Shown here in pieces: positions 1,443-51,929 of a stretch of 64,000 nt of DNA. A model generated the notes under the pieces. The model worked only from the letters and a program-made list of their open reading frames with translations. It was not told the DNA's origin and made no database searches. The DNA lies in NCBI GenBank assembly GCA_963817525.1, contig CAWFOU010000007.1, positions 320,001 to 384,000 on the forward strand. Direction: 5' to 3'. Source of the DNA: an uncultured archaeon. GTDB taxonomy: Archaea; Thermoproteota; Nitrososphaeria; Nitrososphaerales; Gagatemarchaeaceae. Numbering within the stretch: the stretch's first letter is position 1; every line of letters begins with the position of its first letter. Position numbers and translations under genes: made by a program.

Positions 1443-1453
1443 GGGTGGGGGAG

Positions 1454-6917: not shown

Positions 6918-6982
6918 CTTAGCTCCTTGCCTCGTTCCCGCAGGGTCACGCTAAATAAACATCCGGCGGCGCGGGCCGCAGC

Positions 6983-7528: not shown

Positions 7529-7642
7529 CCGCTTTCGCTTGTATGGCTCTGGGTGTCGAAGTATATCAGGTGTTGAGCCGCAAAACCGCTTGAGATAGAC
7601 CATAACCTCTTCCTGCCCCGCGTGGCAGTCGGGGGAGGGCGC

Positions 7643-8896: not shown

Positions 8897-9126
8897 GGAA
8901 CTCTACGCCTCGACTACCGTCGGGGGCCGAACAGTGGCTCCAGGACCCTCTGCGGGTCGGCCTTTCATCACCGTTGTAGGCTGCCCCGGCACTTAAACCG
9001 TTATGATTTCCGAATCCATATCGCCAGAGCCGTTCGACCCCGCGTCCCTCTATGAGACCGAGGTATCTGGCAGGCCCATCCGTGGGTGCTCTCGCGAGCC
9101 CCGCTTCGCCCCGTGCTGCCCTTCGA

Positions 9127-9167
9127 TCAGATGTCGAAGTTAAGGGAGAAGATAACTTCTACATATC
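9127..9167. repeat. att site copy 1 (displaced glnA 3' end plus palindromic arm)
   Basis: tcagatgtcgaagt reads TTC GAC ATC TGA (F-D-I-stop) on the minus strand; 9131-9167 is 34/37 identical to 10975-11011. Confidence 0.85.
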
Positions 9168-9235
9168 GACCAAGAACCGTACGGCATGTGCGATGGCGTG
9201 TGTGTTTATATCCCACTCTACGATAACAAAGTGGG

Positions 9236-9484
9236 ATGAAACGGTTAGCGCTGAAAGTCGACTCGAAGGGGAGAATTCAAGTCCCAAAAGAGATCCGAGA
9301 AGAGCTGGGAATAGGAAAAGAAGTCAGCGCGAGAATCGAGGGCGGGACTATGACGATCGAACCGGTCGAGCGCGTCTTCGACAGACTCGCCAGTGAGGTG
9401 AGGTTCAACTTCAAAAGCGTGGCCACGGAGCTGCCCAGGTTGAGAAAGGCCGCCGAAGAGGAGTTGCTCAAACAGGCATCATGA
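9236..9484 (+). CDS. AbrB/MazE-family antitoxin (VapB-like)
   Basis: KVDSKGRIQVPKEIREELGI...MTIEP swapped-hairpin motif, directly upstream of a PIN gene. Confidence 0.9.
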   Translation: MKRLALKVDSKGRIQVPKEIREELGIGKEVSARIEGGTMTIEPVERVFDRLASEVRFNFKSVATELPRLRKAAEEELLKQAS

Positions 9485-9498
9485 TTCGGTGACCAGGC

Positions 9499-9903
9499 TT
9501 GCTCTTTGAGACTGATGTGTTGCTCGCTGCGCTCAACCCGAACGACCCGCTCAACTCCCCGGCTAGAAAGGTCATGGAACACGACGCCCTCTTGCTATCG
9601 CCATTTTCGTTGCTGGAAGTGAATCTTCTCGCGAGGGCGGGAAAGCTGGAGATTTTGAACTTCAGCGATTTTGCGAGAGACCTGAGCGCATTGTTGGACG
9701 CGAGTTCGATTCGAACCTTGAACGACAGGGCAGAGTACCATTCAGAGGCGCGCCGGTTAGAATCAGAATTCGAGCTGAGCTTCTTCGACAGCCTTCACGG
9801 TGCGGTGTCAAGAGTCCAAAAGGAAATCCTGGTGAGCTTTGACAGGACCTATGACAAACTGAGAAAGGCGGGAGTAAGAAGGCTCGATCCAAAAGAAATC
9901 TGA
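9499..9903 (+). CDS. PIN-domain toxin (VapC-like)
   Basis: ETDVLLA, LLEV, LSFFDSLH and LVSFDRTYD acidic PIN motifs. Confidence 0.9.
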   Translation: MLFETDVLLAALNPNDPLNSPARKVMEHDALLLSPFSLLEVNLLARAGKLEILNFSDFARDLSALLDASSIRTLNDRAEYHSEARRLESEFELSFFDSLHGAVSRVQKEILVSFDRTYDKLRKAGVRRLDPKEI

Positions 9904-9974
9904 AGCTCGTTCGGATTGTTGCAAAGGATATACATCGCTGAGCGCTGAGCGATGAGCTGGTCTAGTGAAGAACC

Positions 9975-10807
9975 GTGATAGGTATTGAACGCTACCAAGG
10001 CGAAGAGGCGAGCGTAAACAGCTATCTCATTTCTGACGCGAGAAACCTGATTGTCGTCGACTTATTGAGAAATAGCGCCGAGGCCAAGAAACTAGCTGAT
10101 CACGTGGCATCCACCGGCAAGAAATTGGACTCAATTTACGTAAGTCATGGTCATCCGGATCACTACATCGGTCTCGGAGTGTTCCAAGCCCGATTCCCAG
10201 ATGTTCCCATCAGGGTAGCGTCACCCAAGATTCGCGAACACATTATTGCTTTCTCCAACTGGATGGACTCGGTTGGATGGCTCAACGCCGAAACAAAAAT
10301 GAAAGTGAAGTCAGAGAAGAACCCCGGAGGCTTTGATTACGCGAATTCGATTGAAGTCCTGGCGAGCCGTTCATGCGACTGCCTCTGGAGCAAGCCAAGA
10401 TTCAAGTCGAGACCGACTATCCCGCGGCAGAATGCGGTCACACGACGACATTAGTAATTCCGGAACAACGCGCTTTTCTGGGATTCGACCTTCTTTACAA
10501 TCGCGTTCATGCTTGGTGCGGCCCTGGGGTTGGGGTGGCTGAAATACAAAATTGGATTCTTACCCTGGATGAGATTATGCGGACTAGGTCTGGTGGAGGC
10601 TGGACGTTTTACTCGGGACATGGGGACAGCGGGGATGAGCAAGTCGTTAGCGGCTTGAAGAGATACCTTCAAGATTTTGTCCGAGTGACCGCGGCTGCAA
10701 AGAGCAGACAGGGAGCGATGGATGAGATGAAGAGGTTCAACCCCGGCTACGCGCAGGAAGACTTCCTCTTGCGATTCAGCGTTGATTTTCACGTGAAAGA
10801 GACGTAA
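9975..10807 (+). CDS. Metallo-beta-lactamase-fold hydrolase, frameshifted at about 10361
   Basis: SHGHPDHYIG motif in ORF 9975..10454; ECGHT, DLLYN and SGHG in ORF 10373..10807; one G missing in CTG GC GAG. Confidence 0.8.
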
Positions 10808-10939
10808 GAGAACCCACAGCCGTGGTGAGTTGGATTGGGCTTCGCCCGAGACGCAGGCCTCAACTGAGGTTGTCTGCGAATCTTCCGCTTTGGCTGCCCC
10901 TTCCATCCACCCCTAGCTTCGTGCCAGAAAATGAAGTTC

Positions 10940-11011
10940 CGATGTGTAGAAGTTGACTTCTACACATCGCCTAAATGTCGAAGTTCAGGTAGAAGATAAC
11001 TTCTACCTATC
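10940..11011. repeat. att site copy 2 with flanking palindromes
   Basis: Perfect 14-2-14 palindrome cgatgtgtagaagt-tg-acttctacacatcg (10940-10969), then ctaaatgtcgaagt (F-D-I-stop on the minus strand), then aggtagaag-ataa-cttctacct. Confidence 0.85.
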
Positions 11012-11193
11012 ACAGGTTAGCGTACAAATAAATGCCGAAAGCCTGGCTGTTGGATGATTCGAATGGAATATGTGAAGAAGCTTGTGGACGGGTGGATATC
11101 GGAGATCTACTTCACTTGGGTTCCTGACCGGCCAGATTGGAAGCAGGGCGAGGGTAAGACAGATTGAGAGATTCCTAGTTTGCCTGTCGACAA

Positions 11194-11607
11194 TCATGTC
11201 CACATGTTCTTGTCTTTTATTATCCGCAACAACTCCCTCTCCCGCTTTGTGATTGTCGTGGCGTTTAGGGTTGCGTATGTGTTCGAGCTGAACGTTCTAG
11301 CGTTGATTTCCAAGGGAGACACTTGACGGGGATTCAGAATCCTAGTCCTCTTAGCCGAGTACCGCAAGGTACCCAGCTGGCTATTCTCTCCCCTAGAGAG
11401 AATCGTCATGTTTCCTAACCTCTTAACCACGTCCGCGTGAACAAGCCCATTCTGAGCGAGATACCTATTCCAGGCTGGATTAGGGTGCTGGGGGACCAAA
11501 TGCTCCACCGTTCGCTTGTACTCCCAGGCCCTTCCGAGAGGATTTGCGATCGCGTCGTTAGCCCTCGTCCAAAGGTAGTTGGCTACCCTGGTGCTCACGT
11601 CATTCAT
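11194..11607 (-). CDS. DUF1524/GmrSD C-terminal-type HNH nuclease domain protein
   Basis: TVEHLVPQ...RLGNMTILSRGENSQLG..Y..K signature. Confidence 0.75.
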   Translation of the reverse strand: MNDVSTRVANYLWTRANDAIANPLGRAWEYKRTVEHLVPQHPNPAWNRYLAQNGLVHADVVKRLGNMTILSRGENSQLGTLRYSAKRTRILNPRQVSPLEINARTFSSNTYATLNATTITKRERELLRIIKDKNMWT

Positions 11608-11609
11608 CT

Positions 11610-13061
11610 CTACGACTTGTCAAGCATCTCTATGTACGTCCTTTCATCAGATTGCGAGAGTACCCTGCTGACAATGGAGAGATGAAGATACGTCAAGAGA
11701 ACTGACGCTAAATCTCCAGCATAGCTTTGCCACGCGTGAAGAGCGTGATCGGTAGTCGAAACGGGAGGATGGAATTCATCCCAGCCTTCGCCTCTATGAA
11801 CATGGGCGCTTCGGATGCTGTAGGCGTTGAGAAGGAGGTTTTCAGTGTCGTTCTCATCCACAGCCAAGGACTTGACAAGGTGAACTACCCTTTGGACAAA
11901 GACCTTCAGTCTATCAGACTCCGGAGTGAAGAAAGCTTCGAGAGCCTCGATTATGCGCTGTACCCTTGCCTCAGATGACTCATACGAGTCCAGTATTTCG
12001 ACATATCTGGAATACGCCAATGACAGAGGCGTTTGTCTCCCTTCATGCGGATACAGTCTGGTCGAGTAGTCCCTCGCGACTAGGGTTCTCATCAGGTCCA
12101 AGAACTGCGCATCCGACTTTGAAACCGAAAACGTACCGCGTGCCTCCTGCCATGAGCCGCCCTCCTTCCATTCATACCTGTAGACCGGCTCGGAGGACAG
12201 AGCGGGAAGATACAGTTCGACATGCTGGAAGCCGGTCTTGATGTTCGCATCGCTCTGCACAAGCCAAAGCGCGTGCCTCCAAGAACTCGCCGAACCGAAA
12301 GCTGGGCCAATGAGGAGATCAAATTCCCTCACGGACGAGTACATTCGAACATCAACGAAGTCCCGATAGCCGTACATTTCGTTCAGTTTTCCGGTGACGC
12401 CGCCTGACGCTTCGAGGACGGCCGAATCGTGGTACTCGGAAGGAAAGGGGACGTCCCTGAAAGACCTGTCGGCGAGAGGCTCGAAAACGTCGTGATAGTC
12501 GGACTTGAGGAGTCTGCGGAGAGCAACACCGGGAGAGATCTCAATCGATTCATCTTTGACGCTGATCCCTCTCAAACCGAATCTGGCGACGACTCGAAGA
12601 CTATCCTCCTGGAGGTCCCTCAAGAATCCGTCGACAAGTGGTTGAATATCCACCCAGCGATTCTTCAAAATCGCGGTCTCAATGTAGTATGCAAAGCAGA
12701 CTAGGTAGAGTCGCAGCGTCCCTTCGTCCCTGGACCGATTCTCCGCCTCGACCAGCTGTGAGAGCGCGGTAGTGAACTCAGGCCGATTTCGAATTATATT
12801 GAAAAGGCGCTCGATTTCTGCATCCGAGTAGCCGAGAGCAGGGTGGCCGCTCCAGTTGACTCTTGGAATCACGGTGTCTCCCAAGGTGAAGTCACCGTAA
12901 TAGTTCACGCGGAATAGCATGCCTTTGACCTGGTGAAGTAGCGGAGGCGACAGCCAAGCTTTGACATCGGATACCTCGATGAGCGCGTCGTCAATCAATA
13001 CTCCTACAGCACGTGCCAACTCAGAGAGGGCATCACGAGGAGCCATCTTTTCGGTCATCAT
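11610..13061 (-). CDS. Large HEPN-domain protein (ApeA-like architecture), putative defence RNase
   Basis: C-terminal IEALEAFF...AYSIRSAHVHRG (Rx4H HEPN motif). Confidence 0.7.
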   Translation of the reverse strand: MMTEKMAPRDALSELARAVGVLIDDALIEVSDVKAWLSPPLLHQVKGMLFRVNYYGDFTLGDTVIPRVNWSGHPALGYSDAEIERLFNIIRNRPEFTTALSQLVEAENRSRDEGTLRLYLVCFAYYIETAILKNRWVDIQPLVDGFLRDLQEDSLRVVARFGLRGISVKDESIEISPGVALRRLLKSDYHDVFEPLADRSFRDVPFPSEYHDSAVLEASGGVTGKLNEMYGYRDFVDVRMYSSVREFDLLIGPAFGSASSWRHALWLVQSDANIKTGFQHVELYLPALSSEPVYRYEWKEGGSWQEARGTFSVSKSDAQFLDLMRTLVARDYSTRLYPHEGRQTPLSLAYSRYVEILDSYESSEARVQRIIEALEAFFTPESDRLKVFVQRVVHLVKSLAVDENDTENLLLNAYSIRSAHVHRGEGWDEFHPPVSTTDHALHAWQSYAGDLASVLLTYLHLSIVSRVLSQSDERTYIEMLDKS

Positions 13062-13133
13062 TGAGACGCCTCAGAAGATATGCATTAGGCTATGCGCTTT
13101 GGTTCAGCGCCCTTCGGAAGTGAGCCTGCCTGC

Positions 13134-13991
13134 CTACCACTCATATTTTCCGCCACGGGCGAAGTATGCACTCGAGCTGACGATACCCGATAGACCAGAT
13201 TCCAGAACTGCTTCAAACGGGATGTACTTGTACTGATGGTCGCTGTTCTGAATCACGCTGCCGCTAGGTGCGAGCATGAAGTAGGAATCGACCATGTCCT
13301 CACTGGATTCGAAGGTCGGGGGCTGACCTGATTCTAACAGCATTCCGCCGTTGATTCGCCTGAAAGTTTCGAATTCTTCTCTAGTTGGCGCTAGTTCATT
13401 CGGATGCGAGTCGTTCTGACCGTGGATGACCAGCATCTGGAAGACCTTCCACCTGATTGGGCGCAATTCGGCAATCAATGGGCGCATGTCCTCGTCGAAG
13501 TTAAGCTTCGTAACGACGGTGTTGATCTTCAGCTTGACTCTAGCTCTCCTTATCGAAGCGCACGCACGTTTCGCATTCGCTATGTGCCCTCCGCGCCCCC
13601 TTCCTAGGGCCTCTTCTACACCTCCCCTGCCGGAGTCAACCGATACTCCTATCCAGTCGACCCATGGTCTGAGCTCATCCAGCCTTTCGTCTGAAAGAAG
13701 TGATGCGTTGGTGACGATACTGACAGTTAGGCCGGTCTCCTTGGCGAAGGCAGCGAAATCCCTCAAGTTTGGATGCAGCAACGGCTCGCCGCCAACAAAG
13801 TTCAGTTTGGTTATCCCCAACGACTTGAGGCCGGAGATGACGAATCTTCCGCGGTCAAGGTTCGCCTCGGCCTCGGGGAGCTTCTTCATGAAGCAGAATC
13901 TGCACGAGTAGTTGCAACGGTCAGTTAGGTGCCAGTTAGCCGACTCCACTTTGGAGCATTCCGCCTTCTCCGGCCTAGTTACTGAATCCAC
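13134..13991 (-). CDS. Prokaryotic viperin (antiviral radical SAM, ddhNTP synthase)
   Basis: SANWHLTDRCNYSCRFCF, KLNFVGGEPLL, SIVTNAS, KINTVV, RWKVFQML...GQND, MVDSYFML and terminal RGGKYEW. Confidence 0.92.
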   Translation of the reverse strand: MDSVTRPEKAECSKVESANWHLTDRCNYSCRFCFMKKLPEAEANLDRGRFVISGLKSLGITKLNFVGGEPLLHPNLRDFAAFAKETGLTVSIVTNASLLSDERLDELRPWVDWIGVSVDSGRGGVEEALGRGRGGHIANAKRACASIRRARVKLKINTVVTKLNFDEDMRPLIAELRPIRWKVFQMLVIHGQNDSHPNELAPTREEFETFRRINGGMLLESGQPPTFESSEDMVDSYFMLAPSGSVIQNSDHQYKYIPFEAVLESGLSGIVSSSAYFARGGKYEW

Positions 13992-14057
13992 GGATTGTCT
14001 CCTTGTCGAAAACTATTTAGAATCTGTCATTGAAAGTCAAATGGGAGTTTTTATCAA

Positions 14058-14740
14058 ATGTCGACCCACATAGCCTTGCTGGGGAGAAGCGAGGAGCCGG
14101 TTCTCAAGGGATACCAGCACTACGGCGACATCAGAAGGCTGTACCTTCTTCACAGCCCGGATTCGAGCGATTTCAAGTTCAAGGACCTGGCATCCAGCCT
14201 AAAGACGAAGTTAGAGGCTGTTGGCTTCAAGGCGTAGTGTTAAGGGAGGTGAACGCGTTCGACATGAACGACGTCGTCAACGCCGTAATCCATGTCGTAG
14301 ACCATGAGGATCCGCCATACTTTGTGAACATCACCGGGGGCACAAACCTCATGGCTGGAGCGGCGACCGCTGCCGCATTCTTCATAGGCGCAAGAGCGTA
14401 CTACGTCTCAGGAAAGAGAGGAAGCGACCTGGCCGAGGCACATGTAATCGAGCTGCCCGTCCCGAACATACCCTACTATAGGAGCGTCGACAGGACTCAG
14501 CTTCGAGTCCTGAGAGCCTTAGAGAGCCTTGGAGGAAGGGCCGGCAATCCACGGCTCAAGGAGTCGCTCGGAATTTCCGCCCAGAGTCTTAGTTACCACA
14601 TCAAGGAATTGGTCAAGAAGGGATTGGTGAGCGTCACTCGAGGGCAGGAGGCGAGATCGGATGGTTCGACGGTCGATAACAGGATTGTCTTCGTCGAGAT
14701 CACCAATGCCGGAAAGCTCGTGTCAAGCTGGAGTTCTTGA
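14058..14740 (+). CDS. CARF-domain/winged-HTH transcription regulator (Csa3/DUF6293-like), frameshifted at about 14230
   Basis: From ATG 14058: MSTHIALLGRSEEPVLKG...RRLYLLHS (CARF strand 1); continues as GVVLREVNAFD...VNITGGTNLMA; C-terminal wHTH LGISAQSLSYHIKELVKKGLV...ITNAGK. Confidence 0.8.
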
Positions 14741-14922
14741 ATCGACCGAGCGATCCTAAGGGAGCGGAAGGTCCGGATGCACAGGTTGTCACGATGCGGT
14801 GATGGTCAAAATGAGGGGTTTGCTTAGTAATAAAAAAGGGTGCGGCGCCGTGGGCGGCTGAGCATCATTGGACAGCTTGAAACTGTCGCGACAACGCCGT
14901 GACAGTAGAAGGACAACTTGCG

Positions 14923-16068
14923 TCAAAGCAGTTGGAGAGCCATTTCCAGCGTCTCCTTGCACGCCTTCTTTGCCTGTGGGTCGTTCTCCATCAACATCAA
15001 AGGCGTGGTGAGCCCGCTGAACTCCTTTAACTCCTCCTTCGACACCACCTTCGCCCAGATCCTCCCGTTGGTGAAGTTCAGGACGAACAGGATCAGGGGG
15101 ACGCCCAACTTCAACGCCAGCCGCAACTCCGCGAGCACCTTCCTCCTCGGTATCCACCTCTGCCTCGTCCCGTCCTCCCTTAGCGTGAGGGCCTTGAACG
15201 CGCCGACTCCCCTGGGGTTCCGCGTCCCCGGAGCATAGAAGACGTAATCCGGAGTCCCTTCCTTTATGCTGTTGTCGATCAGCTTCCCAGCTCCACGGAG
15301 GATCTCCTCGCAGAACCTCAGCTGGGCATTGTTGCCCCTCTCCCTGTTCGCCCGCCCGTCCTCCGTGGTGAGTCGCCTGTGCCCTATCGCGATGCCCTCC
15401 TTCTCTGCTGTAGCCACCGCGCCCGCCTCTGCGGTCCCGGCTCTTGCCGAGCTGCCGCCGGGGCTGTCGTCATCAATCCCATCCTCCTCTGGAGCGGAGG
15501 CACCCTCCGCCAGGAGTTCGTCTATTTCATCCTGGAGGATCGAGGCCCTCTCGACGAGCGACTCCAGCTTGTTCGAGACGAGGTAGATCGTCGCCGCGTC
15601 GTTTCGGTGCGCCTCGGCCAACTCCTCGTAGCGGCTGGTTATCTGGCCCATGTCCTTCTTCGTGTGCTCTATCCAGTCGAAGACCGACTCGCTCGACCTC
15701 CTTGTCGCATCGCTCGCCTTCTTCATGGCGTCGAGGGTCTGCGGCGCCTTCTGGTTCCACTGCTCGATGGAGGTCTTCAACGCGTCCGCGATCCCCTCGA
15801 TCTTGCCGAGCTTCTCCCCCATCGGAGCGAGGGTCTCCGCGGTCCGCCTCTCCACGAGCTCCACGGTGTCCACCCTCTCCGACTGGACGCGCCCGGAGTA
15901 CTCGAGCATCGAGTGATAGAGACTCCAAGAGCAGACCCAGACGAAAGCGAGCAGCGCGCTCCAGACGGCTGTGAGGAAGGCCCCTTCGAACGCGGGAACG
16001 TCCTGGCTGACCTGGACGACGAGGACCCCCAGGATTGTCGACCCAATGAGAGAAAGCAGGGAGACCAC
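14923..16068 (-). CDS. Membrane-anchored coiled-coil protein with a C-terminal restriction-endonuclease-like domain
   Basis: 2 N-terminal TM, long coiled coil, acidic linker, then GNNAQ...GTPDYVFY...GAFKA resembling PD-(D/E)xK. Confidence 0.5.
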   Translation of the reverse strand: MVSLLSLIGSTILGVLVVQVSQDVPAFEGAFLTAVWSALLAFVWVCSWSLYHSMLEYSGRVQSERVDTVELVERRTAETLAPMGEKLGKIEGIADALKTSIEQWNQKAPQTLDAMKKASDATRRSSESVFDWIEHTKKDMGQITSRYEELAEAHRNDAATIYLVSNKLESLVERASILQDEIDELLAEGASAPEEDGIDDDSPGGSSARAGTAEAGAVATAEKEGIAIGHRRLTTEDGRANRERGNNAQLRFCEEILRGAGKLIDNSIKEGTPDYVFYAPGTRNPRGVGAFKALTLREDGTRQRWIPRRKVLAELRLALKLGVPLILFVLNFTNGRIWAKVVSKEELKEFSGLTTPLMLMENDPQAKKACKETLEMALQLL

Positions 16069-16084
16069 CGCAGTCGCCTCCCCG

Positions 16085-16186
16085 TCATGTCTTGCTCCTT
16101 CGCGCTATGTTCGTGAAGCCGTCGAGGATTAGGTAGGCGGCCTCGGACAGGGCGGTCAAGCCCAGGAGCAGGTCAGTGGCGTCCAC
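16085..16186 (-). CDS. 33-aa hydrophobic microprotein
   Basis: GTG-start MDATDLLLGLTALSEAAYLILDGFTNIARRSKT fills the gap between two same-strand genes and overlaps the upstream stop. Confidence 0.4.
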   Translation of the reverse strand: MDATDLLLGLTALSEAAYLILDGFTNIARRSKT

Positions 16187-16394
16187 TGTCTCTCAGGTCC
16201 TCCTCCAACTCAAGAAGCTGCAGCCAGACGCTTAGCTTCCCCACGAACTCGGAGGCAGGGATGGTCTCTTGCTCGCTCTCGAGCACTTTCCGTAGTGTCG
16301 AGTCAGCACTCAGGCTGGTCGTGGCCCATTCCTTGATCTGGCGGATGTTCACGAGTGCAGCAGGCCCATCCTGCAGCGCTAGTTTACCTACCAT
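16173..16394 (-). CDS. Small hypothetical protein of the element
   Basis: 73-aa ORF about 27 bp from the palindromic TATA box CTTATAAG. Confidence 0.6.
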   Translation of the reverse strand: MVGKLALQDGPAALVNIRQIKEWATTSLSADSTLRKVLESEQETIPASEFVGKLSVWLQLLELEEDLRDSGRH

Positions 16395-16449
16395 GCTGGT
16401 AGGAAGAGGCCTGCGGCAACCTTATAAGCCTTCCTACGCAGTAGGTAGG
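16387..16449. promoter_or_regulatory. Divergent promoter with a palindromic TATA box and CCTAC/GTAGG operators
   Basis: CCTACC-N5-GGTAGG (16387-16403), CTTATAAG (16421-16428) and CCTAC-N3-GTAGG (16433-16445). Confidence 0.6.
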
Positions 16450-16453
16450 CGAG

Positions 16454-17139
16454 ATGCCGGACGTCACGGTCAAGGTCTCGGTCTGGAGTTGCTCGAGAAA
16501 GAGCCCAGGCGCTACTCCGAGTTGGTTCGAGACCTAGGAAGGCCTGACAAGACGGTCTATGTCGCTTTGACGGGGCTGGCCGAGTCGAGATTCATTTTGA
16601 AGGACGAACAAGGCAAGTACGGTCTCACGGACGCGGGAAGGCGTGAGCTCGAGCGGATCAGGTTCGTCAGGGTCGCTGCTGAGGAAGACGACCTCACGAT
16701 CATAACGAACACGCGGTTAGCCATAGCGCTTGGACGGTCCGACGACCTCCTGTTCGACCTTCGCTATCTCCTATCCAGGACGTTCAAGGGCTTGGACGAC
16801 GAAGACAGAAGCAGAGTCAGAGAGAAGCTGGTTGTCATAAGGAACTTGTTGCTGAAGTACAACCCCTCGCTGAAGAGGGAGGAGCTCGAAAGGGGCGAGA
16901 GCAAGGGGACCGAGATCCGCCTCACGGAGCTGCTCAGCGGGGGGATTCTGTGGGAGAAGCGGTTCATAAAGTGGGGGCTGAAAGACCGATACCTGCACCT
17001 TCTCAATCTGGCAAAAGAGCTTCCGGAGGGTCCTGCCAAGGATGAGATATCCGGCTCTCTGGCCTTGTTTAGAGAGGTCGCCGGGAAACTGGATACGAGC
17101 CTAGGAGAGTTGGGTCCTCCGGCTGAGTCCGCCACGTGA
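16454..17139 (+). CDS. Winged-HTH DNA-binding protein (probable element repressor); N-terminus appears frameshifted
   Basis: LELLEKEPRRYSELVRDLGRPDKTVYVALTGL...YGLTDAGR; the nearest ATG (16454) is out of frame. Confidence 0.7.
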
Positions 17140-17361
17140 CAAATCGGGCTTTCGGCAATTGCGGCACATCTCCATCGACTCCAAAAGCAAGGAGTTCGGG
17201 CATTGAGACTTGGCTCATAGCGCTCGGGACGTCTTTTCCACGCTCAGGCGGACTGTGCCCAAACTCGAAAGAACCCCCTGTCTACTTGCTAGTTTTGGGC
17301 GCTCTTGGTTTGGGCAATACCTTGAATAGAAGAGTGTTCTAGCGCTAAGTGCGGTTCCCCT

Positions 17362-18201
17362 GTGAATCGACGCGGGTTTCCGCTAACTGGGATTGTAATC
17401 TTTCTCTATCTGATAGTCGTAATCCTCCTCCTCACTCAGGACGGCCAGATCGCTTGGAGATGGCTCCCAATCACCTACAGCGCCACGAAGGGTCATATCG
17501 AGATCATCATCACGTATTTGGTCATCCTTGCTTTAGCACTCATCTTCTGCAGGCTCGAAGGAGTTCGCGTTAGACTTGCCCGCCGGGCTGATGCTAAACC
17601 AGCCCTCGCTGTCCTCGCTTCAACGCTCGGAGGGGTGGTAATCTTGGCACTGTTGAATCCTGCCGTGATTTCAGGTTCTGACTATCTAGACGGCGCTCTG
17701 ACAGTCGTTCAACTTGTGGTGGTGGTCGGATGTGTTGAGGAATTCGCCTTCCGTGGTTACATCCAAGGAAAGTTGCTCTTGATCTCTCCGCCCTCAGCGA
17801 CTGGATCGGGGATCCCAAGGGCCGTTTTCATTTCAGCCGCATTCTTCGCGCTGATGCATGCAATCGTCGACTTCCTTAGTTCGCCTGCAACAGCCGTTGA
17901 CGGACTCGTGATTCAGTTCATGGGCGGCCTGTTTTTCGGGCTGATTTACTACATGTCCGGGTCGCTTCTGCTATCAATTCTATCGCATGGGTTCTATGAC
18001 TTAGGAGGGAGCATACTGTCCGGCCGGCAGGAGATCTACTCTGCTCCGCCGTTGGAGACCTTTGTTCTCTATCTGGCGGAATTCCTCATCCCCACCATAA
18101 TCTGCTATTACGCCTATAATCGGACTGCTATCCGAGAGGAGAATTCGAGTCCTGGAGTGACTAGGAATACCGCGAATGGCCTCGGTTCCGAGGTGCCTTA
18201 G
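17362..18201 (+). CDS. CPBP/CAAX (Abi-family) intramembrane metalloprotease
   Basis: EEFAFRG, FALMH and SHGFYD motifs; multiple TM. Confidence 0.88.
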   Translation: MNRRGFPLTGIVIFLYLIVVILLLTQDGQIAWRWLPITYSATKGHIEIIITYLVILALALIFCRLEGVRVRLARRADAKPALAVLASTLGGVVILALLNPAVISGSDYLDGALTVVQLVVVVGCVEEFAFRGYIQGKLLLISPPSATGSGIPRAVFISAAFFALMHAIVDFLSSPATAVDGLVIQFMGGLFFGLIYYMSGSLLLSILSHGFYDLGGSILSGRQEIYSAPPLETFVLYLAEFLIPTIICYYAYNRTAIREENSSPGVTRNTANGLGSEVP

Positions 18202-18319
18202 ATGGAGGGCGGGGCTACCAAGTTTGGACCACTCTGCCTGAATGCGGCAGCGGTTACCTGATGTTCATGGAAGGTCAGAAGGAACTAGAATGCAGTTCTT
18301 GCGCGGCTAAACTCCCCCT

Positions 18320-19048
18320 TCAAGCGCGACTCATTCGTTTCAGTTGCTTGGGATAATGGCCTGCCATCGTAGCAACCAATCCGAGGATAAGGAAGGCAAC
18401 GAGGCCAAGATATGCTTGGGGAAACTCAGGTGCTGTTGTGCTGTTCGCACAGTTGCCAAGAAGATCGCAGTTCGTGGCTTCCCATGCCTGCCAACCCTCC
18501 TTCAGTAGGAATCCTCCTTGTTGGCCGACGTAAGCCGTGATTGATGCCTCTACGGACAGGAGGCAAATCGTGTCGCAGTAGTGGACGGCCACATCGATTA
18601 TGCCGGGGAGGTATTCGATTGCTCCGTCTCCCAGAACGAGAATGGTTATGTCTCCTGCCAGTATCAAAGCGGCTCCTAGGAAGTTGCACGCCGAGTCTGG
18701 ATTGGTGGCATTGACTTCGGCAGAATAAGTCAGGAAGTCGTTGAATGGACCAGTGAGGGTAGTGATCTTGTTCAGGTCGTCGCCGTTCAAGAGGGGGACT
18801 TTCAGCTGCAGAGTTCCATTGATAGCGGGGATGACAGCGTTGATCTCTTGGGCGATTGCCTGTGCTGAGGTGTTGTTGGTGACATTTGTAAGACCGAGCT
18901 GATTAACTTGGCCGGAGAGAGTCAAGGCGAATGGCATGGCTTGCGATGGGCATGACGATGTGGTTTCCTGGCCCTCCGCCTTGGGAGCAGCGGCGGGGAC
19001 CGCGAACGATAGGAGAATCATCGCAGCCAGCACGAGATTAGTTCTCAA
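18320..19048 (-). CDS. Secreted Cys-rich protein with a PEF-CTERM-like sorting signal
   Basis: Signal peptide; C-terminal TTAPEFPQ followed by a TM helix and a basic tail. Confidence 0.7.
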   Translation of the reverse strand: MRTNLVLAAMILLSFAVPAAAPKAEGQETTSSCPSQAMPFALTLSGQVNQLGLTNVTNNTSAQAIAQEINAVIPAINGTLQLKVPLLNGDDLNKITTLTGPFNDFLTYSAEVNATNPDSACNFLGAALILAGDITILVLGDGAIEYLPGIIDVAVHYCDTICLLSVEASITAYVGQQGGFLLKEGWQAWEATNCDLLGNCANSTTAPEFPQAYLGLVAFLILGLVATMAGHYPKQLKRMSRA

Positions 19049-19267
19049 CTACCTAACTTCTTTACAGGTTTTTGAGCCCCCCGCCCTTAACAGTTTGGCT
19101 GATGCGAAGCCGTTTAATATCGAGAAAATGCTTACACTTAGAAATGCCTCGGTAGGATAACCACGGTGCAGCCCGCCCAAACCGCCAAGGAACTCCTCTG
19201 TCTAGCTGCTAGTTTGGGGGCTGCTTCTACTACGTAACATGTTCCGCTTCTATTCCCCGATGAATTA

Positions 19268-19797
19268 TTAGCAGATTGAATAGCCAGGTGTAGTGGTCGT
19301 ATCAACTTCAGAGGTTTGACCGTTCGCGAATGTTCCGATTAGACGCACTGAATATGGAAGTCCGCCGCTTAGATCCGAGCAGGTAATTATTCCAGCCACT
19401 GAACAAGGAAGATAATGATTGGGCAGAACGTTCAAACTACAGGTCCCAACCAGGTCCCATCAACGTAGCCCGTCACTTGATTCAGAGTCTCTTGATCACC
19501 GTCCGTTATCGTCATGCCCAATGTGAAATTCGTCATCTCAGCGCAACCATTGGCGTTGTAGGAGAGACAATCAGCAATCTCGACCGTGGTAACAACACCT
19601 GCGCTAAAGGTCGGCTTTGGTGCGGCTAACGCAGTAATTTCCTGAATGCTCGGAAGCCCCTTCCCTTGGGCAGTGTTATGGCTTCTGAAATAGAGGACGA
19701 ACCCGCCTGTCACGGCTGCCGCAGCGATGATAACGAGAAGGGTAATTGCCACCACCTTTCCCGAGACCCCCCCAGCCTTTTCCGGCTCTAGTTCCAA
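19268..19797 (-). CDS. Membrane-anchored surface/pilin-like protein, frameshifted at about 19445
   Basis: KAGGVSGKVVAITLLVII N-terminus; after one missing G it continues LGTCSLNVLP...YSVRLIGTFANGQTS...YSIC to TAA at 19268. Confidence 0.6.
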
Positions 19798-19991
19798 ATC
19801 TTGCCGTTCTGTTTCAAGATGTTGCGATTATTAGGTGATGTGGATTTCAAATCGATGTTTTGACCTCGATTAGGGATGTGACAAGGGCACCCCGGCCTGA
19901 GTTAGGTCTGAATCGAACATTGTTTTTCACTAGCCGTTGCCCGTGGTTTTGGGCACTAGGTTAAATCGGGTTTCTGATTTGAGTTGGGACA

Positions 19992-20717
19992 TTGGCAGGA
20001 TCGCAGGACGCGAACGAAGAGTTGTTTCGCAAAGGCCTAGAGGGGAAATTCCGTATGATAGAGAGTCTAGCAATCGGTCACCTGAAGAATAGTTGGGCCG
20101 AGTATCACTCAGGAGAATTTGACGCCGCCTCGGGCATAGTTACCACCTATCGAGCGGCTCGCAAATCCTTCGAAGAGCACACGAAGGAAACGCGACTCTT
20201 GGAGGACATTCCGGTTCCAACTCCCGGCTCAACCGGCGATTATCGGGACACCAAACGGCAGATCCGAATGGTGATTTCGAACTCTGCTGCTGCGGTTGCT
20301 TTCCTTACGAGAGGTGAACAGAAGGTTCCGGCAGATGTTAGAAACAAGCTCGACGCCCTCCTAGAACAGATTGCGGACGTGCAAAAACTGAGCCCCAATC
20401 TCCACGTGCATTTGGCCGAGTCAGTGAAAGAGCACGAGGCTACACATTATCTCGCCTCATCAGTTTTGGCCGCCAAATCTATTGATTATGTTCTCTCTAA
20501 ACTTCCCGGCGACAACGAGATCGGAAAGGCGGATTTCCTAGTCTCCAAGGGCCTGTTGAAAAAGGAACTGAAAGACGGATGGGTTCTAACTTGGAAGAAG
20601 GCGAGGAACTACTATGTGCATGACTTGTCGGCAATCCCAGCGTCCCCTGAATCTCTGTCTCTCGTCACGCAGGCTTGCGAGCTTGCATTGGCATACACCA
20701 AAGCCAATCTTTCGTGA
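19992..20717 (+). CDS. HEPN/DUF4145-like domain protein
   Basis: YLASSVLAAKSID...KARNYYVHD (Rx4H). Confidence 0.6.
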   Translation: MAGSQDANEELFRKGLEGKFRMIESLAIGHLKNSWAEYHSGEFDAASGIVTTYRAARKSFEEHTKETRLLEDIPVPTPGSTGDYRDTKRQIRMVISNSAAAVAFLTRGEQKVPADVRNKLDALLEQIADVQKLSPNLHVHLAESVKEHEATHYLASSVLAAKSIDYVLSKLPGDNEIGKADFLVSKGLLKKELKDGWVLTWKKARNYYVHDLSAIPASPESLSLVTQACELALAYTKANLS

Positions 20718-20894
20718 TTCTCTAACGTGCCGATCTCAGACCGCCCCGGTAGATAGGGTTCGACCAACTCGTATGCCCTGCTGATAATTTCCATCTTGTT
20801 CTCCGCAATCCTCTTCCCGGTCGCAAGTCCCGGTCCGGATCCGACGGGGGCCGTTGGCGAGAATACATGAGTGATTGAACTATAGGCTTTAGAC

Positions 20895-21383
20895 TCAAGG
20901 ATTTACGATCAGTAAGACCAATTGAATCGCCACCGAGAATATGAGGACGATTACAGACATCTGATTTTGGCGACTTTGAATCATGTTGGAATACATCTGG
21001 TCAAAAAGCGCCCAGTTTGCCGTAGGAGAGGAATTCATGACAATCCTGTGATCCAATCTGACTTCTCTCGTCATGCTGTTTCCTGTTGTGGATAGATCGC
21101 CAATGGCAGAATCCTTGTCAACCTCTTCCCAAGACACTTTTCTGAATGTATAATCCAATCCAGTTAGCCGAATCAACCAGTAGTAATTCTGACTCTTTGA
21201 GACCTTCCCTTTTTTGATAAGCTCGTTGATAGCCCCAGAAGCCTTCCAATATCTTCTATCAAAGATACGCGCCATCTTGAGGTACAAGTCCGTCGAGACA
21301 GTGATTACCGCAGCAAAAAGAGCGATTAGAATCGAAAGAATCTTAAGACCAAGGATTATTTCAGAGCAGCCAATTGACATCAA
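20895..21383 (-). CDS. Hypothetical 2-TM membrane protein
   Basis: 162-aa ORF with hydrophobic helices at both ends; low GC. Confidence 0.55.
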   Translation of the reverse strand: MMSIGCSEIILGLKILSILIALFAAVITVSTDLYLKMARIFDRRYWKASGAINELIKKGKVSKSQNYYWLIRLTGLDYTFRKVSWEEVDKDSAIGDLSTTGNSMTREVRLDHRIVMNSSPTANWALFDQMYSNMIQSRQNQMSVIVLIFSVAIQLVLLIVNP

Positions 21384-21691
21384 CCCTCTAGGAATCTCCT
21401 CGCAAATGTGGCAATCAGCATCGCCTCGAGGAAGGGGGCTGCCTTGACACGGCCAGTGAAGGGCGCACGGGCATCTCTTTCAAATCGGACTCAGGCGACT
21501 CCACCGGAAACTCGCTTCCTGGTCAACTTAAACGCTGATATATCAGGCCAGGAAGGACTTTTCCTGCTTCACGGACGAGTCAGGCCGGATTGCTCAGGGA
21601 ACCTGCAGCATGGGTAAATATTACGACCCGCGGGACCTTATTCTGCGTTTATCCCCGCACTATCCGCTGATTCAATATCTTGGATGAAGCT

Positions 21692-21961
21692 TCATTGCTT
21701 CAGCATCTCTGCAACAGCCTTTCTGGTGCCAGCCTTGGCCCACGCTATCTCCTCTTTCACCTGCTTCCTGCTCTTAGTTTGCGTCTGCAGCTTGGAAGTT
21801 ATTGACTCGAGTTCGGCCATCCGTTCATCATTATACAGCCTCCGCTTAGTCGCGACGCGAATAAGTTCATCCCTCGTCATACGCTCTCCAGTCCCAGACA
21901 GCACCTCGATACGCCTCGAGACCTTCGGCCGAGTCGAGTGGTTCCCGGCGTGCGGCGTCAT
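21692..21961 (-). CDS. Small basic hypothetical protein
   Basis: ATGA overlap with the DUF2283 gene. Confidence 0.55.
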   Translation of the reverse strand: MTPHAGNHSTRPKVSRRIEVLSGTGERMTRDELIRVATKRRLYNDERMAELESITSKLQTQTKSRKQVKEEIAWAKAGTRKAVAEMLKQ

Positions 21962-22173
21962 TCCGATATCTCCACCTTCATCTCCTTCTTGGCGGTGAAG
22001 TAACGACTGAAGTTCGTGATTGTAACTCCTCTGATCTTGTTGGTCTTCGGGTCGCGCCTGACCAGCACATAATCATCAACCTCCTCTGAGACAGAAGGCC
22101 GCGGCTTCCCGAAGCTCAGGTACGCGACATCGGCCTCCTTGTCATAGCTGATGATTAGCTTGCTTTTCTCCAT
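21958..22173 (-). CDS. DUF2283-family antitoxin
   Basis: ISYDKEADVAYLSFG...VLVRRDPKTNKIRGVTI. Confidence 0.85.
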   Translation of the reverse strand: MEKSKLIISYDKEADVAYLSFGKPRPSVSEEVDDYVLVRRDPKTNKIRGVTITNFSRYFTAKKEMKVEISE

Positions 22174-22469
22174 ACCACCTTCTTCCTCTTTACATTCTCA
22201 GTGAAGTACGCCGTCAGTATAAATCCTTCTCCATTCAACTGCTTGATCACGACTGCAAGGTACTTCGATGTCACCGCCGTCTTATTGAAGAACCTGTAGA
22301 GAATCCTGGTATCGTCAGTAGCACCAGTCGCCACCAGCTCCGGCTCCGAAAGCGCGAGTTCGATCTTGTGTTCATCGACCATCACTTCGGGATGGAAGAA
22401 AGCAATGTGTAGTCTCTGGATTTCAGTGAATCTTATCTTTCTGCCATCATAGGCAACAAAGTGGTCCAT
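22155..22469 (-). CDS. RelE/BECR-fold ribonuclease toxin partnering DUF2283
   Basis: GRKIRFTE..RLHIAFFHPEV...KYLAVVIK...GFILTAYFT; overlaps the DUF2283 gene. Confidence 0.75.
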   Translation of the reverse strand: MDHFVAYDGRKIRFTEIQRLHIAFFHPEVMVDEHKIELALSEPELVATGATDDTRILYRFFNKTAVTSKYLAVVIKQLNGEGFILTAYFTENVKRKKVVWRKAS

Positions 22470-22479
22470 CCGGTTGTCA

Positions 22480-23745
22480 CTACATTGGTAACTTAACGAC
22501 AACGTCTGAGTCGGGAAGCTGAGCGAGATATTCCCAGCCCTGACCAATATGAGCTTTCAGCTCGCTGATAGGAATCACCTTCTGTCTGTTCCCGTTGTTG
22601 GCCATGGCTCCGAGCAGCTTCTCTCGCACCATCTTCTGAAAGTCCTCGTCCTTCATGCTCGACAGGTCCAGCTTGTCGACCTGCTCCTGGGTGTAGCCGG
22701 CGATTTGTATCAGCGTCTCTCGCTTGAAGGACTGCTTGATCTCCTCTTGGCTCATCCCTCGCTTGCGCAGCATTATCGTGACCGCTTCCATGCCTTTGAG
22801 ATAGAACTCTCTCATCTGGTCTTCCGTGTATCGCCTGTACGCGGAGTCGAGGAAGAGCTTGTGCCCCATCAGCGCCTCGGCAATGTCCCTTCCCAATGGC
22901 TGAAGCATCTGCGTGAAGAAGAACTTCCTCAGGCAGTGGATGTGGATGGTAGCCCTCCCCTGGTCGTCCTTCTCCCCCAGTCCGGAGTTCTTCAGCGCCA
23001 ACGAGAAGATGTGGTCCGCGTTCCAGTAGGACATCGGGAGGTTTCCGGTCTTGTGCTCCTGTCCACGGGTTGACGTCGGGAAGATGTAGTCGCTGGGATT
23101 GTTGATCCGGTCGAGGAGGAATTCCTTCAAGAACGTGACCGCCTCGTCGCTGATGAAGCAATATCTCGGCTGTCTGTCCTTTGTCACCTCTGCCCTAAGG
23201 TGTATCGTCGCTGGGTTCTTGGACAGATCGATATCCTTCACCCTGAGAGTAAGGAACTCTCCCACCCTCATCCCGCTCGAAGCCAGCATTGTGACAAGGG
23301 CCTTTCCGCGGGCATCCGTGTGCGTGAGGACGCTCCTGAGCTCTTCCTGCGTCGGGACCCTGTCGGCGGTGACCGCGTGATACCTAGGGAGGTCCACCTT
23401 GACCCTCATCTTGGCGTTGTCCAGATCAAAGTCGTTAATGGCGAGGAACTTCTTCACGGCCGTGATTCGATTCCTGAGGGAGTTTGGCGCGAACTTGTCC
23501 TTGAGCATCCATGCCACATATCCGTCGATGACCTTGTAGACGTCGTTCTTTCTCATGTAGGCCAATGCGTCGTTGGGGAGCATCTCGAGGTAGCTGCAAA
23601 AGTCCATCATCCCTCCGGTGGCGTTCTCGATGCTCTTCTTGGAGCCCCGCCTCCCCACTTTCTCTAGGTAGGTCTTGAGCTGAACGACTACCTCGTCCCG
23701 ATGATCTCTCCTCCACTCGTACGCTCTCCTGTTTAGGACCTTCAT
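22480..23745 (-). CDS. Tyrosine recombinase/integrase
   Basis: SSGMRVGE (R), TKD (K), HCLRKFF (HxxR) and LMGH...AY (H, Y) catalytic motifs. Confidence 0.93.
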   Translation of the reverse strand: MKVLNRRAYEWRRDHRDEVVVQLKTYLEKVGRRGSKKSIENATGGMMDFCSYLEMLPNDALAYMRKNDVYKVIDGYVAWMLKDKFAPNSLRNRITAVKKFLAINDFDLDNAKMRVKVDLPRYHAVTADRVPTQEELRSVLTHTDARGKALVTMLASSGMRVGEFLTLRVKDIDLSKNPATIHLRAEVTKDRQPRYCFISDEAVTFLKEFLLDRINNPSDYIFPTSTRGQEHKTGNLPMSYWNADHIFSLALKNSGLGEKDDQGRATIHIHCLRKFFFTQMLQPLGRDIAEALMGHKLFLDSAYRRYTEDQMREFYLKGMEAVTIMLRKRGMSQEEIKQSFKRETLIQIAGYTQEQVDKLDLSSMKDEDFQKMVREKLLGAMANNGNRQKVIPISELKAHIGQGWEYLAQLPDSDVVVKLPM

Positions 23746-23788
23746 GCAGGTCGGGACCTAGCTCCAGCCCGCATTTAAGCCTTGACAG

Positions 23789-23816
23789 GTAGCAGTTAAC
23801 TGCTAGATGTCGAAGT
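23789..23816. repeat. att site copy 3 (current glnA 3' end) with a palindrome
   Basis: Palindrome tagcagttaactgcta (23790-23805) overlaps the glnA stop and core agatgtcgaagt. Confidence 0.8.
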
Positions 23817-25266
23817 AGAGGTAGTACTCGTACGGGACGGGCCTCGCCGCGACCGCCTTTGCGTTGGCCGAGCCGAGCTCGATGATCATGTCGACCATGT
23901 CCTTGCTGAAGATTCCGTCGAGGAAGCTCGAGTCGCTCTGGAGCGCCTCCAGCGACTCGAAGAGGCTCGTGGGGAGGTTCTTGACCCCGAAGGCCTTCTT
24001 CTTCTCTGGGGTGAGGTGGTAGATATCCTCGTTGACCGGGCTCCCCGGGTCGATCTTCTTCTTGATGCCGTCGAGCCCCGCGGCCAGGATCGCCGCGAAG
24101 GCGAGGTACGGATTGGCGGAGGGGTCGGGGGTCCTGAACTCGGCCCTCTTCCGCTTCTCCTCGTTGGCTCCCTTGTGGTAGACCGGTATCCTGACGTTGG
24201 CGGAGCGGTTGGCCTTGCTCCACGCGATGTAGATGGGGGCCTCATACCCTGGGACGAGCCTGCGGTAGGAGTTGGTCGTCGGGTTGGTGATGGCGGTCAG
24301 CGCGCGGCTGTGTGCCAGGAGGCCTCCCACGTAGTAGCGCCCGACCTGGCTGAGCTCCGCGTAGCTGTCCCCCGAGTCGTAGAACGCGTTCTTCGAGCCC
24401 TTCCATAGGCTCGAAGAGACGTGCATGCCCGAGGCGTTGTCGCCGAAGATGGGCTTGGGCATCACCGAGGCGATGAGGCCCCTCCTCGCGGCGATGTTCT
24501 TTATCACGAACTTGTAGCTGAGGACGCTGTCGGCCATCGGGACTAGAGTGTCCCTGTACATGTCGATCTCGCATTGGCCGGCGGTGGCCACCTCGTGGTG
24601 GTGCGCGTCGTTGATCACGCCGAAGCTCTCGTCGAGGAGGTATGCGACCTCGCTGCGGTAGTCCTGCAGGGTGTCCTGCGGGGGGGCCGGGTAGTAGCCC
24701 TCCTTCCACCTGATGGGGAAGTTGGTGCCCCTGGCCTCGACCGCGCTCTCCACCGACGTCACCTTGAAGCTGTTATCGAACGGGTTGTGCACCGACCAGG
24801 TCGCGCTGTCGAAGACGAAGAACTCTATCTCTGGGCCCCAGTACGAGTCGGTGAAGCCCGCCTTCCTAGCAGCCTCCTCGGCCTTTTGAGCGATGTACCT
24901 TGGGTCCCGGGAGAACCTGCCCTTGCCGAATCCCCACTGGATGTCGCAGATGAGCCTCCCGGTCGGGTACCTCTCATCCCCCCATGGGATGATTGCCCAT
25001 GTGTCTGCGTCAGGGGTGAGGAGCATGTCCGACTCGTAAATCTCCGCGAAGCCCTTGATCGAGGAGCCGTCCAGCTTGGCGATGCCGACCTCGAACATGT
25101 CCTCGTCGATCATGTTTAGCGGGATGGAGACGTGCTGGGTGCGTCCAGGGACGTCCATGAACTGCAAGTCGACGAACTTTATGTTCTTCTCCTTGATCTC
25201 GGCCATAACCTGCTTGGGAGTCCTCTTCCGCGGGACTAGGCCCTTCGGAGTGTGGTCAAACGGCAT
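23803..25266 (-). CDS. glnA: Glutamine synthetase type I
   Basis: LDGSSIKGF, HHHEVATAGQCEI, MPKPIFGDNASGMH, NSYRRLVPGYEAP and EFRTPDPSANPYLA motifs. Confidence 0.97.
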   Translation of the reverse strand: MPFDHTPKGLVPRKRTPKQVMAEIKEKNIKFVDLQFMDVPGRTQHVSIPLNMIDEDMFEVGIAKLDGSSIKGFAEIYESDMLLTPDADTWAIIPWGDERYPTGRLICDIQWGFGKGRFSRDPRYIAQKAEEAARKAGFTDSYWGPEIEFFVFDSATWSVHNPFDNSFKVTSVESAVEARGTNFPIRWKEGYYPAPPQDTLQDYRSEVAYLLDESFGVINDAHHHEVATAGQCEIDMYRDTLVPMADSVLSYKFVIKNIAARRGLIASVMPKPIFGDNASGMHVSSSLWKGSKNAFYDSGDSYAELSQVGRYYVGGLLAHSRALTAITNPTTNSYRRLVPGYEAPIYIAWSKANRSANVRIPVYHKGANEEKRKRAEFRTPDPSANPYLAFAAILAAGLDGIKKKIDPGSPVNEDIYHLTPEKKKAFGVKNLPTSLFESLEALQSDSSFLDGIFSKDMVDMIIELGSANAKAVAARPVPYEYYLYFDI

Positions 25267-51906: not shown

Positions 51907-51929
51907 GGGGAGAATGCTCTGTAAAATTT

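Follow-up and report, generated by a model that had tools for sequence, protein, structure and literature searches.

A probable glnA-specific tyrosine integrase and the tandem, site-bounded units behind it in Gagatemarchaeaceae archaea

In streptococci, cis-mobilizable elements (CIMEs) and microCIMEs accumulate by accretion at the 3' ends of fda, rpmG, rpsI and rplL, as the available parts of two studies describe (PMC7563491, PMC5704250). Among thaumarchaeal integrated elements, 14 of 68 lie in the 3' ends of protein-coding genes, and the sections devoted to these elements report that NitEve-E2 inserts in such an end with a new stop codon and note tandem re-use of a site (PMC6563490). Coding sequences are also common targets among proviruses (39.9%), in a study whose main text does not mention glnA (PMC13626063), and the relevant part of a 2021 review calls recombination at coding-region sites untested and asks about dyad symmetry (PMC8371274). 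Here we describe a 64,000-nucleotide stretch of DNA (the window) from an uncultured archaeon of the Gagatemarchaeaceae (contig CAWFOU010000007.1 of assembly GCA_963817525.1), in which glnA, the gene for glutamine synthetase, is followed by a tyrosine integrase gene and three tandem units bounded by copies of its last codons. We consider it probable, at roughly 0.8, that the integrase behind glnA uses the last codons of this gene as its attachment site and that repeated insertions built the three-unit stack found here.

Cores and palindromic arms behind glnA

The glnA gene occupies positions 23803-25266 on the minus strand (487 aa; PF00120, PF03951) and ends in Y-F-D-I-stop, its 3' end being TAC TTC GAC ATC TAG. 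The glnA-proximal junction (attL; 23803-23816, minus strand) consists of the core ACTTCGA, the last codon and TAG. Read in the sense of glnA, this copy is TTC GAC ATC TAG, and the core recurs on the same strand as TTC GAC ATT TAG at the junction of units 1 and 2 (10971-10984) and as TTC GAC ATC TGA at the junction of units 2 and 3 (9127-9140). These three cores had been located in an initial annotation of the DNA, and they were recovered at the same positions: the stop-plus-core pattern has exactly three matches on both strands of the 2,822,328-base genome, all of them in the window and in one orientation. The same annotation took the outer cores to bound a region of lower GC content, in agreement with values of 0.538 for unit 1, a 12.8-kb integrase-bearing element (10985-23802), and 0.519 for unit 2, which is 1.8 kb long and integrase-less (9141-10970), against 0.661 at 1-7548 and 0.628 at 25267-64000. 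Its statement that every copy restores F-D-I-stop is literally true of the glnA-proximal copy, but the other copies lie outside any glnA reading frame. No tRNA gene was found in the 64-kb window.

Palindromic arms of 18 bp, which the initial annotation did not report, accompany the sites. In both downstream intact sites, an 18-bp palindrome of the GTAGAAG-N4-CTTCTAC type precedes the core by 4 bases; it occupies 10989-11006 at the distal end of unit 1 and 9145-9162 at that of unit 2. A related 18-bp palindrome at the glnA junction (23789-23806) overlaps the glnA stop codon and forms what we call an integrase-type left end. The left end of unit 2 has a 30-bp palindrome with 13-bp arms (10940-10969), which lies 11 bp further out than the integrase-type arm, the core of the palindrome starting 7 bases after the stop. 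A palindrome is thereby present at each end of both low-GC units. On the predicted circular form, the two palindromes would lie 14 bases apart in the integrase-bearing type and 25 bases apart in the integrase-less type, a difference of about one helical turn.

The integrase open reading frame (ORF; 22480-23745, minus strand; 421 aa, PF00589) begins 57 intervening bases past the glnA stop and is thus next to glnA as initially annotated. Its residues R160, K189, H270, R273, H295 and Y303 are invariant in an alignment of 34 homologues. A scan of the junction with sigma-70 promoter and terminator models, which leave out archaeal promoters, gave no match. About 30 bases before the integrase start lies a TATA-like box (TTAAA; 23770-23781, minus strand) conserved in related loci, which, judged by the archaeal promoter consensus, is the putative integrase promoter.

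A fourth, decayed core, which the initial annotation had also not reported, is present at 7549-7562 on the minus strand, where the core is followed by ACC CAG and reads F-D-T-Q, with no stop and no recognisable arm. It scores -6.1 bits (rank 16 of 63,957 window positions) by a site matrix trained on downstream sites; this matrix also scored the sites used to train it and was biased towards those that end in a stop. Because of this poor score, the fourth core rests on alignment: its counterparts there are the junction directly after glnA in the relative G012 and the outermost sites of both G022 and G017. A gene for a GNAT acetyltransferase comes next. In the window this gene (6983-7528, minus strand, with a start near 7528 suggested by the alignment) is a host neighbour outside the array, and the 7549-7562 core is the junction to host DNA; in G012 and G068 it stands directly after glnA. 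G012 therefore has an empty site, at which synteny with the window resumes at the GNAT gene and continues beyond. Since the fourth core aligns with this empty-site junction, the antiporter segment at 7563-9126 is inserted relative to G012. We refer to this segment as unit 3 (about 1.6 kb); it is absent between glnA and the GNAT gene in G012 and G022, has a host-like GC content of 0.648 and encodes a CPA2-type antiporter (7643-8896) with a TIGR00932 match below the cut-off. Unit 2 has kept its arms at both ends, while unit 3 has cores at both ends and an eroded arm and is presumably the oldest unit.

These results change the history that the initial annotation had proposed. It assumed two successive integrations, but three units are present, and the 1.8-kb unit 2 has no integrase. 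The empty site that it anticipated exists in G012, although glnA adjoins the GNAT gene there and not the sequence at or below position 9126. It also made adjacency of glnA and the antiporter in relatives a test of the idea; the antiporter had no match at 20 glnA loci, and a homologue with 52-56% identity occurs in 4 of 22 congeners on contigs other than the glnA contig. The missing adjacency does not refute the idea because the antiporter is itself inserted DNA.

Linkage of the integrase to glnA and arrays in related genomes

The integrase was searched in 97 genomes of the family, its own genome included, at a threshold of E 1e-60, and 12 genomes matched. The integrase lies directly behind glnA in nine of them (G000, which is its own genome, G004, G009, G015, G017, G018, G063, G070 and G084), and the remaining three matches (37-38% identity) are not in this position; a truncated copy was found behind glnA in G081. 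At 14 metagenome loci, glnA is directly upstream of the integrase in 11, two have no upstream DNA and one (L038) has another element's end upstream; seven further loci were repeats of counted ones and were left out of the tally. An order-wide search of 401 genomes added only matches of 35-38% identity. When 400 other genomes of the phylum were searched with a profile, five matches resulted: four (42-47% identity) come from two families outside the order and lie immediately behind glnA, and the fifth (32% identity) is behind a tRNA-Ser gene. In total, 14 genomes, including four from outside the order, have a close homologue (40-97% identity) immediately behind glnA. Eight homologues show 32-38% identity: five start within about 200 bases of a tRNA gene, two have a tRNA gene 2.6 and about 4.7 kb off, and one has no tRNA gene within 4 kb. 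A quick tree of 26 rows, made without near-duplicates and without frameshifted or partial copies (G015, G070, G084, G483, L047-L050), places the 15 glnA- or array-linked rows on one side of a branch with an SH-aLRT value of 92, which is not starred. The expectation that integrase homologues adjoin glnA is borne out by the genomes, the metagenome loci and this branch, and the proposal that a family of elements uses glnA as attB now has behind it an integrase clade tied to the glnA 3' end, an empty site and tandem units. Integrases 86-92% identical to that of the window sit behind glnA genes only 63-66% identical to its glnA (L047, G084), which points to horizontal spread and is consistent with transfer between genera. 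The same internally deleted integrase stands behind glnA in two genomes (loci L032 and L033 of G084 and G070), and a second copy of glnA in G084 ends differently.

To describe the glnA end itself, last residues and stop codons were counted in a set that includes related genomes and near-duplicates. Over 81 glnA ends with the same end motif, the last residue is L in 43, I in 31, M in 2, Q in 2 and T, A and V in one each. Where an integrase is next to glnA (23 genes) it is I in 18, L in 4 and V in 1, so that the residue is not fixed as I, contrary to the initial annotation. The stop in these 23 genes is TAG in 20 and TAA in 3, and in the other 58 it is TGA in 32, TAG in 18 and TAA in 8; the absence of TGA from the integrase-linked genes, compared with 32 of 58 others, suggests that the stop arrives with the element. 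The last codon is host-like (Leu) at L041 and L047, whose elements are near-identical, and this ruled out that the element always supplies the last codon; it is Ile in G070 and G084, though their genus mostly ends in Leu. The last codon thus probably lies within the exchanged region. The invariant part of the core is ACTTCGA and the general rule for the end is Y-F-D-x-stop. A dyad scan for the crossover register gave no clear winner.

With the site matrix, downstream sites of at least 25 bits were found at 12 of 64 glnA-anchored loci and on two unanchored contigs, and no site of at least 20 bits occurred in 731,963 reverse-strand and 391,838 control positions. The arrays of relatives are made of integrase-less units of 0.6-5 kb and gene-free 43-bp units. 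In G009 a 17.8-kb integrase element, the first 2.1 kb of unit 1 being 96% identical to it, is followed by units of 1.0 kb, 2.8 kb and 43 bp; units of 3.1 kb, 43 bp and 2.0 kb, without an integrase, make up the array of G010; the G017 array ends in a 43-bp unit; and a contig of G002 has five sites spaced 1.3-1.75 kb apart. An apparent 43-bp unit in G022 was rejected, as its second core was a palindrome extension and was lost in a refined scan. No integrase match was found inside 30 array segments tested, and nine of the 12 genomes with downstream sites (completeness 54-99%) have no integrase in array or genome at E 1e-60. In G065 the second place behind glnA is taken by the segment that comes first in G064 (94% identity over 795 bases), indicating insertion on the glnA side in this pair. 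Unit 2 as a whole was not found elsewhere among the 97 family genomes, and its toxin-antitoxin part was found in G056, G057 and G090 without att sites nearby.

The offset of the left-end palindrome was tallied across 118 sites. The palindrome overlaps the stop in 21 of the 24 sites with an integrase next, and three ends of this type have no integrase behind them. By contrast, none of the 11 ends with the palindrome at +10/+11 is followed by an integrase in the next 1.5 kb, and units of this type stand first behind glnA in G022, G044 and G065. The other integrase-free sites have no recognisable left palindrome (77) or other offsets (3). Decaying integrases were found in G015, G081, G084 and G070.

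Two further arrangements were noted among these loci. A third class of junctions has head-to-head sites, with the glnA end repeated in inverted orientation after the stop (L007:1497-1535, L005, L074, L003:2682 and L008:10488). At L013:1463-5896 (G016), glnA ends in F-D-T and is followed by a cassette-like arm and by XPB helicase and DUF790 genes; no distal site was found there before the contig end.

Model of insertion and competing explanations

In the explanation we favour, a circular element would recombine within ACTTCGA plus the last sense codon of glnA. The element would bring its own stop codon as part of a palindromic arm, so that glnA would stay whole and its last residue could change, and the palindromes may be protein-binding arms. 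Each new unit would land beside glnA and push older units outward to decay, as the order of an intact integrase, a broken hydrolase gene and finally host-like GC with an eroded site suggests. Integrase-less units that keep their arms would move only with the help of an integrase-bearing element, as streptococcal CIMEs do, and the 43-bp units may be scars after deletion of cargo between two terminal palindromes.

Several points weigh against this explanation. Excision, circles, recombination and transfer are predictions from sequence here. The tree is of a quick type and its key branch is not starred, the genomes are related and several loci are near-duplicates. Matrix scores, like a tally of distal sites in which the stop is retained, are partly circular, and only the controls are independent. 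The crossover register is not fixed by the dyad scan, and the last codon follows the host at L041 and L047 but the element in G084 and G070. At their left ends, integrase-less units depart by 11 bp from the integrase type, a difference not expected from simple decay. Finally, a putative unit of G102 is largely common to G101, in which no site was found, and some units may therefore be ordinary host DNA between eroded sites.

Alternatively, the small units may be dedicated non-autonomous cassettes, which were never autonomous and are moved by the integrase in trans in an integron-like array anchored in glnA. This possibility, to which we give tentative weight, refines the favoured explanation rather than excluding it. 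In its full form it would be an archaeal gene-cassette system of an origin separate from integrons, in which a mobile integrase docked at glnA inserts and reorders integrase-less cassettes of 0.6-5 kb in trans, with a site geometry of their own (arms 11 bp further apart), and in which the glnA 3' end serves as a family-wide gene-capture platform that rewrites the last residue; taken jointly, these statements are doubtful. The distribution of left ends speaks for dedicated cassettes, as +10/+11 ends lack a following integrase in all 11 cases and 21 of 24 stop-overlapping ends have one, their offsets differ by about one helical turn, and +10/+11 units can come first behind glnA. So do the five sites spaced 1.3-1.75 kb apart in G002, the 30 segments free of integrase and the nine genomes with downstream sites in which no integrase copy was found, although several of these genomes are incomplete. 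On the other hand, whole units are rarely common to genomes: shared pieces are either confined to one unit end (681-694 of 1763/2829 bases; 609 of 702/1997) or explicable by vertical descent, and together with the case of G102 and G101 this weakens the idea of freely moving whole cassettes. The decaying integrases and the three integrase-type ends without an integrase also weigh against dedicated cassettes, and an unseen second autonomous family with a +10 end could account for the cassette-type ends.

Elements can also be inserted by a host Xer recombinase at a dif-like site, as in integrative mobile elements exploiting Xer (IMEX). Host XerA acting on a dif-like site in glnA to insert the integrase-less units is highly unlikely here and was rejected: one possible 11-6-11 register exists around ACTTCG, but no protein of the 95%-complete genome passes the archaeal XerA cut-off, the best (76.5 against 220) being the element's own integrase, and the linkage of integrase and glnA explains the site without XerA. 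We regard as extremely unlikely a true integron with a fixed integrase platform and attC-type cassettes. It would match the position of the integrase beside the insertion site, followed by site-bounded units, and the integrase-less arrays resemble clusters of attC sites lacking integron-integrases (CALINs) as described in PMC9668308. However, the integrase reaches 42.9 bits with TIGR02249 (cut-off 265) over residues 130-191 only; 17 folded sites gave variable structures, many near the shuffle level and alike on both strands; and the genes of the units face both ways and include their own regulators. The integrase is moreover absent from most relatives and at L038 follows another element's end instead of glnA. 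An integron was therefore rejected, as the locus has no IntI signature, no common attC fold and no stationary integrase. That the repeats are chance matches or an assembly artefact is almost certainly wrong. The core is short, genome contamination is estimated at 8.75% and the fourth core scores poorly, but the only three genome-wide matches all fall in the window, the same junctions occur in independent genomes and the outermost core is the exact point at which synteny resumes; this explanation is refuted for the three main sites.

Cargo, neighbouring features and relation to known systems

Near its distal end, unit 1 carries genes in which a possible defence function was recognised (11194-14740): a viperin, a possible ApeA-like HEPN protein and a lone HNH-type domain stand opposite a CARF-winged helix-turn-helix (wHTH) regulator. 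The prokaryotic viperin gene (13134-13991, minus strand) scores 241 bits with NF038283 (cut-off 180) and matches PADLOC pVip; it had no match in the related loci screened, which marks it as variable cargo. The CARF-wHTH regulator (14030-14740, plus strand) matches PADLOC CARF3 at E 4.7e-38. A stand-alone GmrSD C-terminal (HNH-type) domain (11194-11607, minus strand; PF07510) has partial PADLOC matches to HEC-06, Orf5 and SspE. The 483-aa cargo protein between this domain and the viperin (11610-13061, minus strand) has no Pfam, NCBIfam, PADLOC or PHROG match and is possibly an ApeA-like HEPN protein, a lead from an Atlas feature match of 0.96 to the 'Apea-like HEPN' cluster with recognition below threshold. 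Near the integrase, a DUF2283 gene (PF10049) and its upstream partner, which has no family match (21958-22547, minus strand), likely form a toxin-antitoxin pair. In all, PADLOC gave three strong matches among 16 window proteins tested, and the integrase alone of 12 proteins matched PHROGs. Pfam, NCBIfam and PHROGs scans of unit 1, in which several ORFs have no family, recognised no virion or conjugation signature gene and no relaxase. A viral origin was considered and rejected, since it had a single weak integrase match (30% over 82 residues) and the arm-plus-core pattern had no match in viral contigs. Unit 1 also has a 25-bp direct repeat (84%) around two ORFs (17275-17299 and 19195-19219), unrelated to the att core.

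Unit 2 carries an AbrB/MazE-type antitoxin and PIN-domain toxin pair (9236-9903, plus strand; PF04014, PF01850) and a metallo-beta-lactamase-fold hydrolase in two overlapping frames (9975-10807, plus strand), either a broken gene or a sequence error, whose halves match N- and C-terminal parts of NF040580 below the cut-off. Cargo of related units was examined with PADLOC at 1e-10, using the 63 longer of 109 predicted ORFs from eight other integrase-bearing elements (L042, a near-duplicate of L043, was left out). Twelve of the 63 ORFs matched, in six of the eight elements, and none of seven large ORFs from integrase-less units did; these are raw counts and not a measure of enrichment. In integrase-less units, Pfam scans (one of which covered 41 of 44 ORFs) found toxin-antitoxin genes, regulators, transporters and small enzymes. 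Defence cargo is thus mainly on integrase-bearing units and less on small units, and the initially proposed defence-cargo hotspot applies to the former.

Outside the array, an Lrp/AsnC regulator gene (25383-25838) is divergent from glnA and is kept upstream of it in relatives. Three minus-strand ORFs at 49744-56383 encode Ser/Thr-rich, probably secreted proteins, one containing a 300-bp unit that is repeated 2.6 times with 100% identity and another a long serine-rich tract, and they explain the GC dip and skew there. Elsewhere in the genome, about 200 kb off the window, a near-perfect glnA-type distal arm (G000:C7:131383-131419), its match ending right after ACTTCG, is found in another low-GC island, about 130-150 bases in from its tRNA-like end, and a similar arm in G022 (G022:C11:28462-28492) lies about 150 bases from a tRNA-Glu gene; these arms may stem from insertion at secondary sites or may have been captured by tRNA islands. 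A solitary left end of the +10 type with core, stop and palindrome (G000:C7:182534-182575) precedes a small two-gene module that is HicAB-like by eye, and a matching distal arm was looked for and not found.

Among described systems, the closest architectural match is CIME and microCIME accretion. According to the available parts of the streptococcal studies (PMC7563491, PMC5704250), tandem elements there also stand at the 3' end of a protein-coding gene, decay being greatest in those farthest from the target, integrase-less cargo units of 1.2-13 kb keep att sites, and gene-free micro units occur, of 130-220 bp compared with 43 bp here. The units described here likewise lack recombination and transfer genes (30 segments for the integrase; Pfam scans). 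They differ in their archaeal host and glnA target, in the lack of any recognised relaxase or conjugation gene in unit 1, and in that an integrase-less unit may occupy the place next to the gene and that such units show a left-end spacing of their own. Because of this spacing and position, descent by deletion is not established, and no integrative and conjugative or integrative and mobilizable parent of the integrase-less units was recognised.

Unit 1 itself resembles the thaumarchaeal cryptic integrated elements (CIEs): it encodes a tyrosine integrase as the sole signature gene recognised, has short att direct repeats at its bounds and an empty site in a relative, and its size is within their range of 2.6-98 kb as given in the sections on CIEs (PMC6563490). 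In that paper glnA is not among the listed targets (no 'glutamine' match in text and four supplement files), and its CIE sections do not describe arrays of integrase-less units; here, moreover, the target is a single protein-coding gene, to which one integrase clade holds across families and orders. With integrons and CALINs (PMC9668308), the arrays share ordered, site-bounded units with the newest beside the anchor and the occurrence of arrays without an integrase. They differ in having no IntI signature, no uniform attC fold, mixed gene orientation, a mobile integrase and a site inside a host gene. In the nearest outside homologues, as in tRNA-targeting archaeal tyrosine integrases (PMC8371274), the 3' end of the target is likewise followed by the integrase, but the target here is a coding sequence.

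We therefore class unit 1 and its neighbours as an archaeal cryptic integrative element with a putatively glnA-specific integrase and CIME-like accretion. In the literature searched, most of it outside subscription journals, there was no description of glnA as an integration target or of archaeal integrase-less arrays. Insertion in protein-coding 3' ends with stop replacement and tandem re-use is already known in Thaumarchaeota from the sections cited above (PMC6563490); what is new is the glnA target, its conservation across orders and the separate left-end class on integrase-less units. They define a concrete and well-replicated probable attachment site of an archaeal tyrosine integrase in a protein-coding gene, with testable arms and core, and an integrase accepting glnA ends across orders could become an integration tool for the phylum. 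If the small units are indeed dedicated cassettes, the system would be an integron analogue of separate origin. In comparison with the streptococcal elements, the arrays extend CIME-type accretion to archaea and single out glnA as a site at which these archaea acquire small metabolic genes as well as defence and toxin-antitoxin genes.

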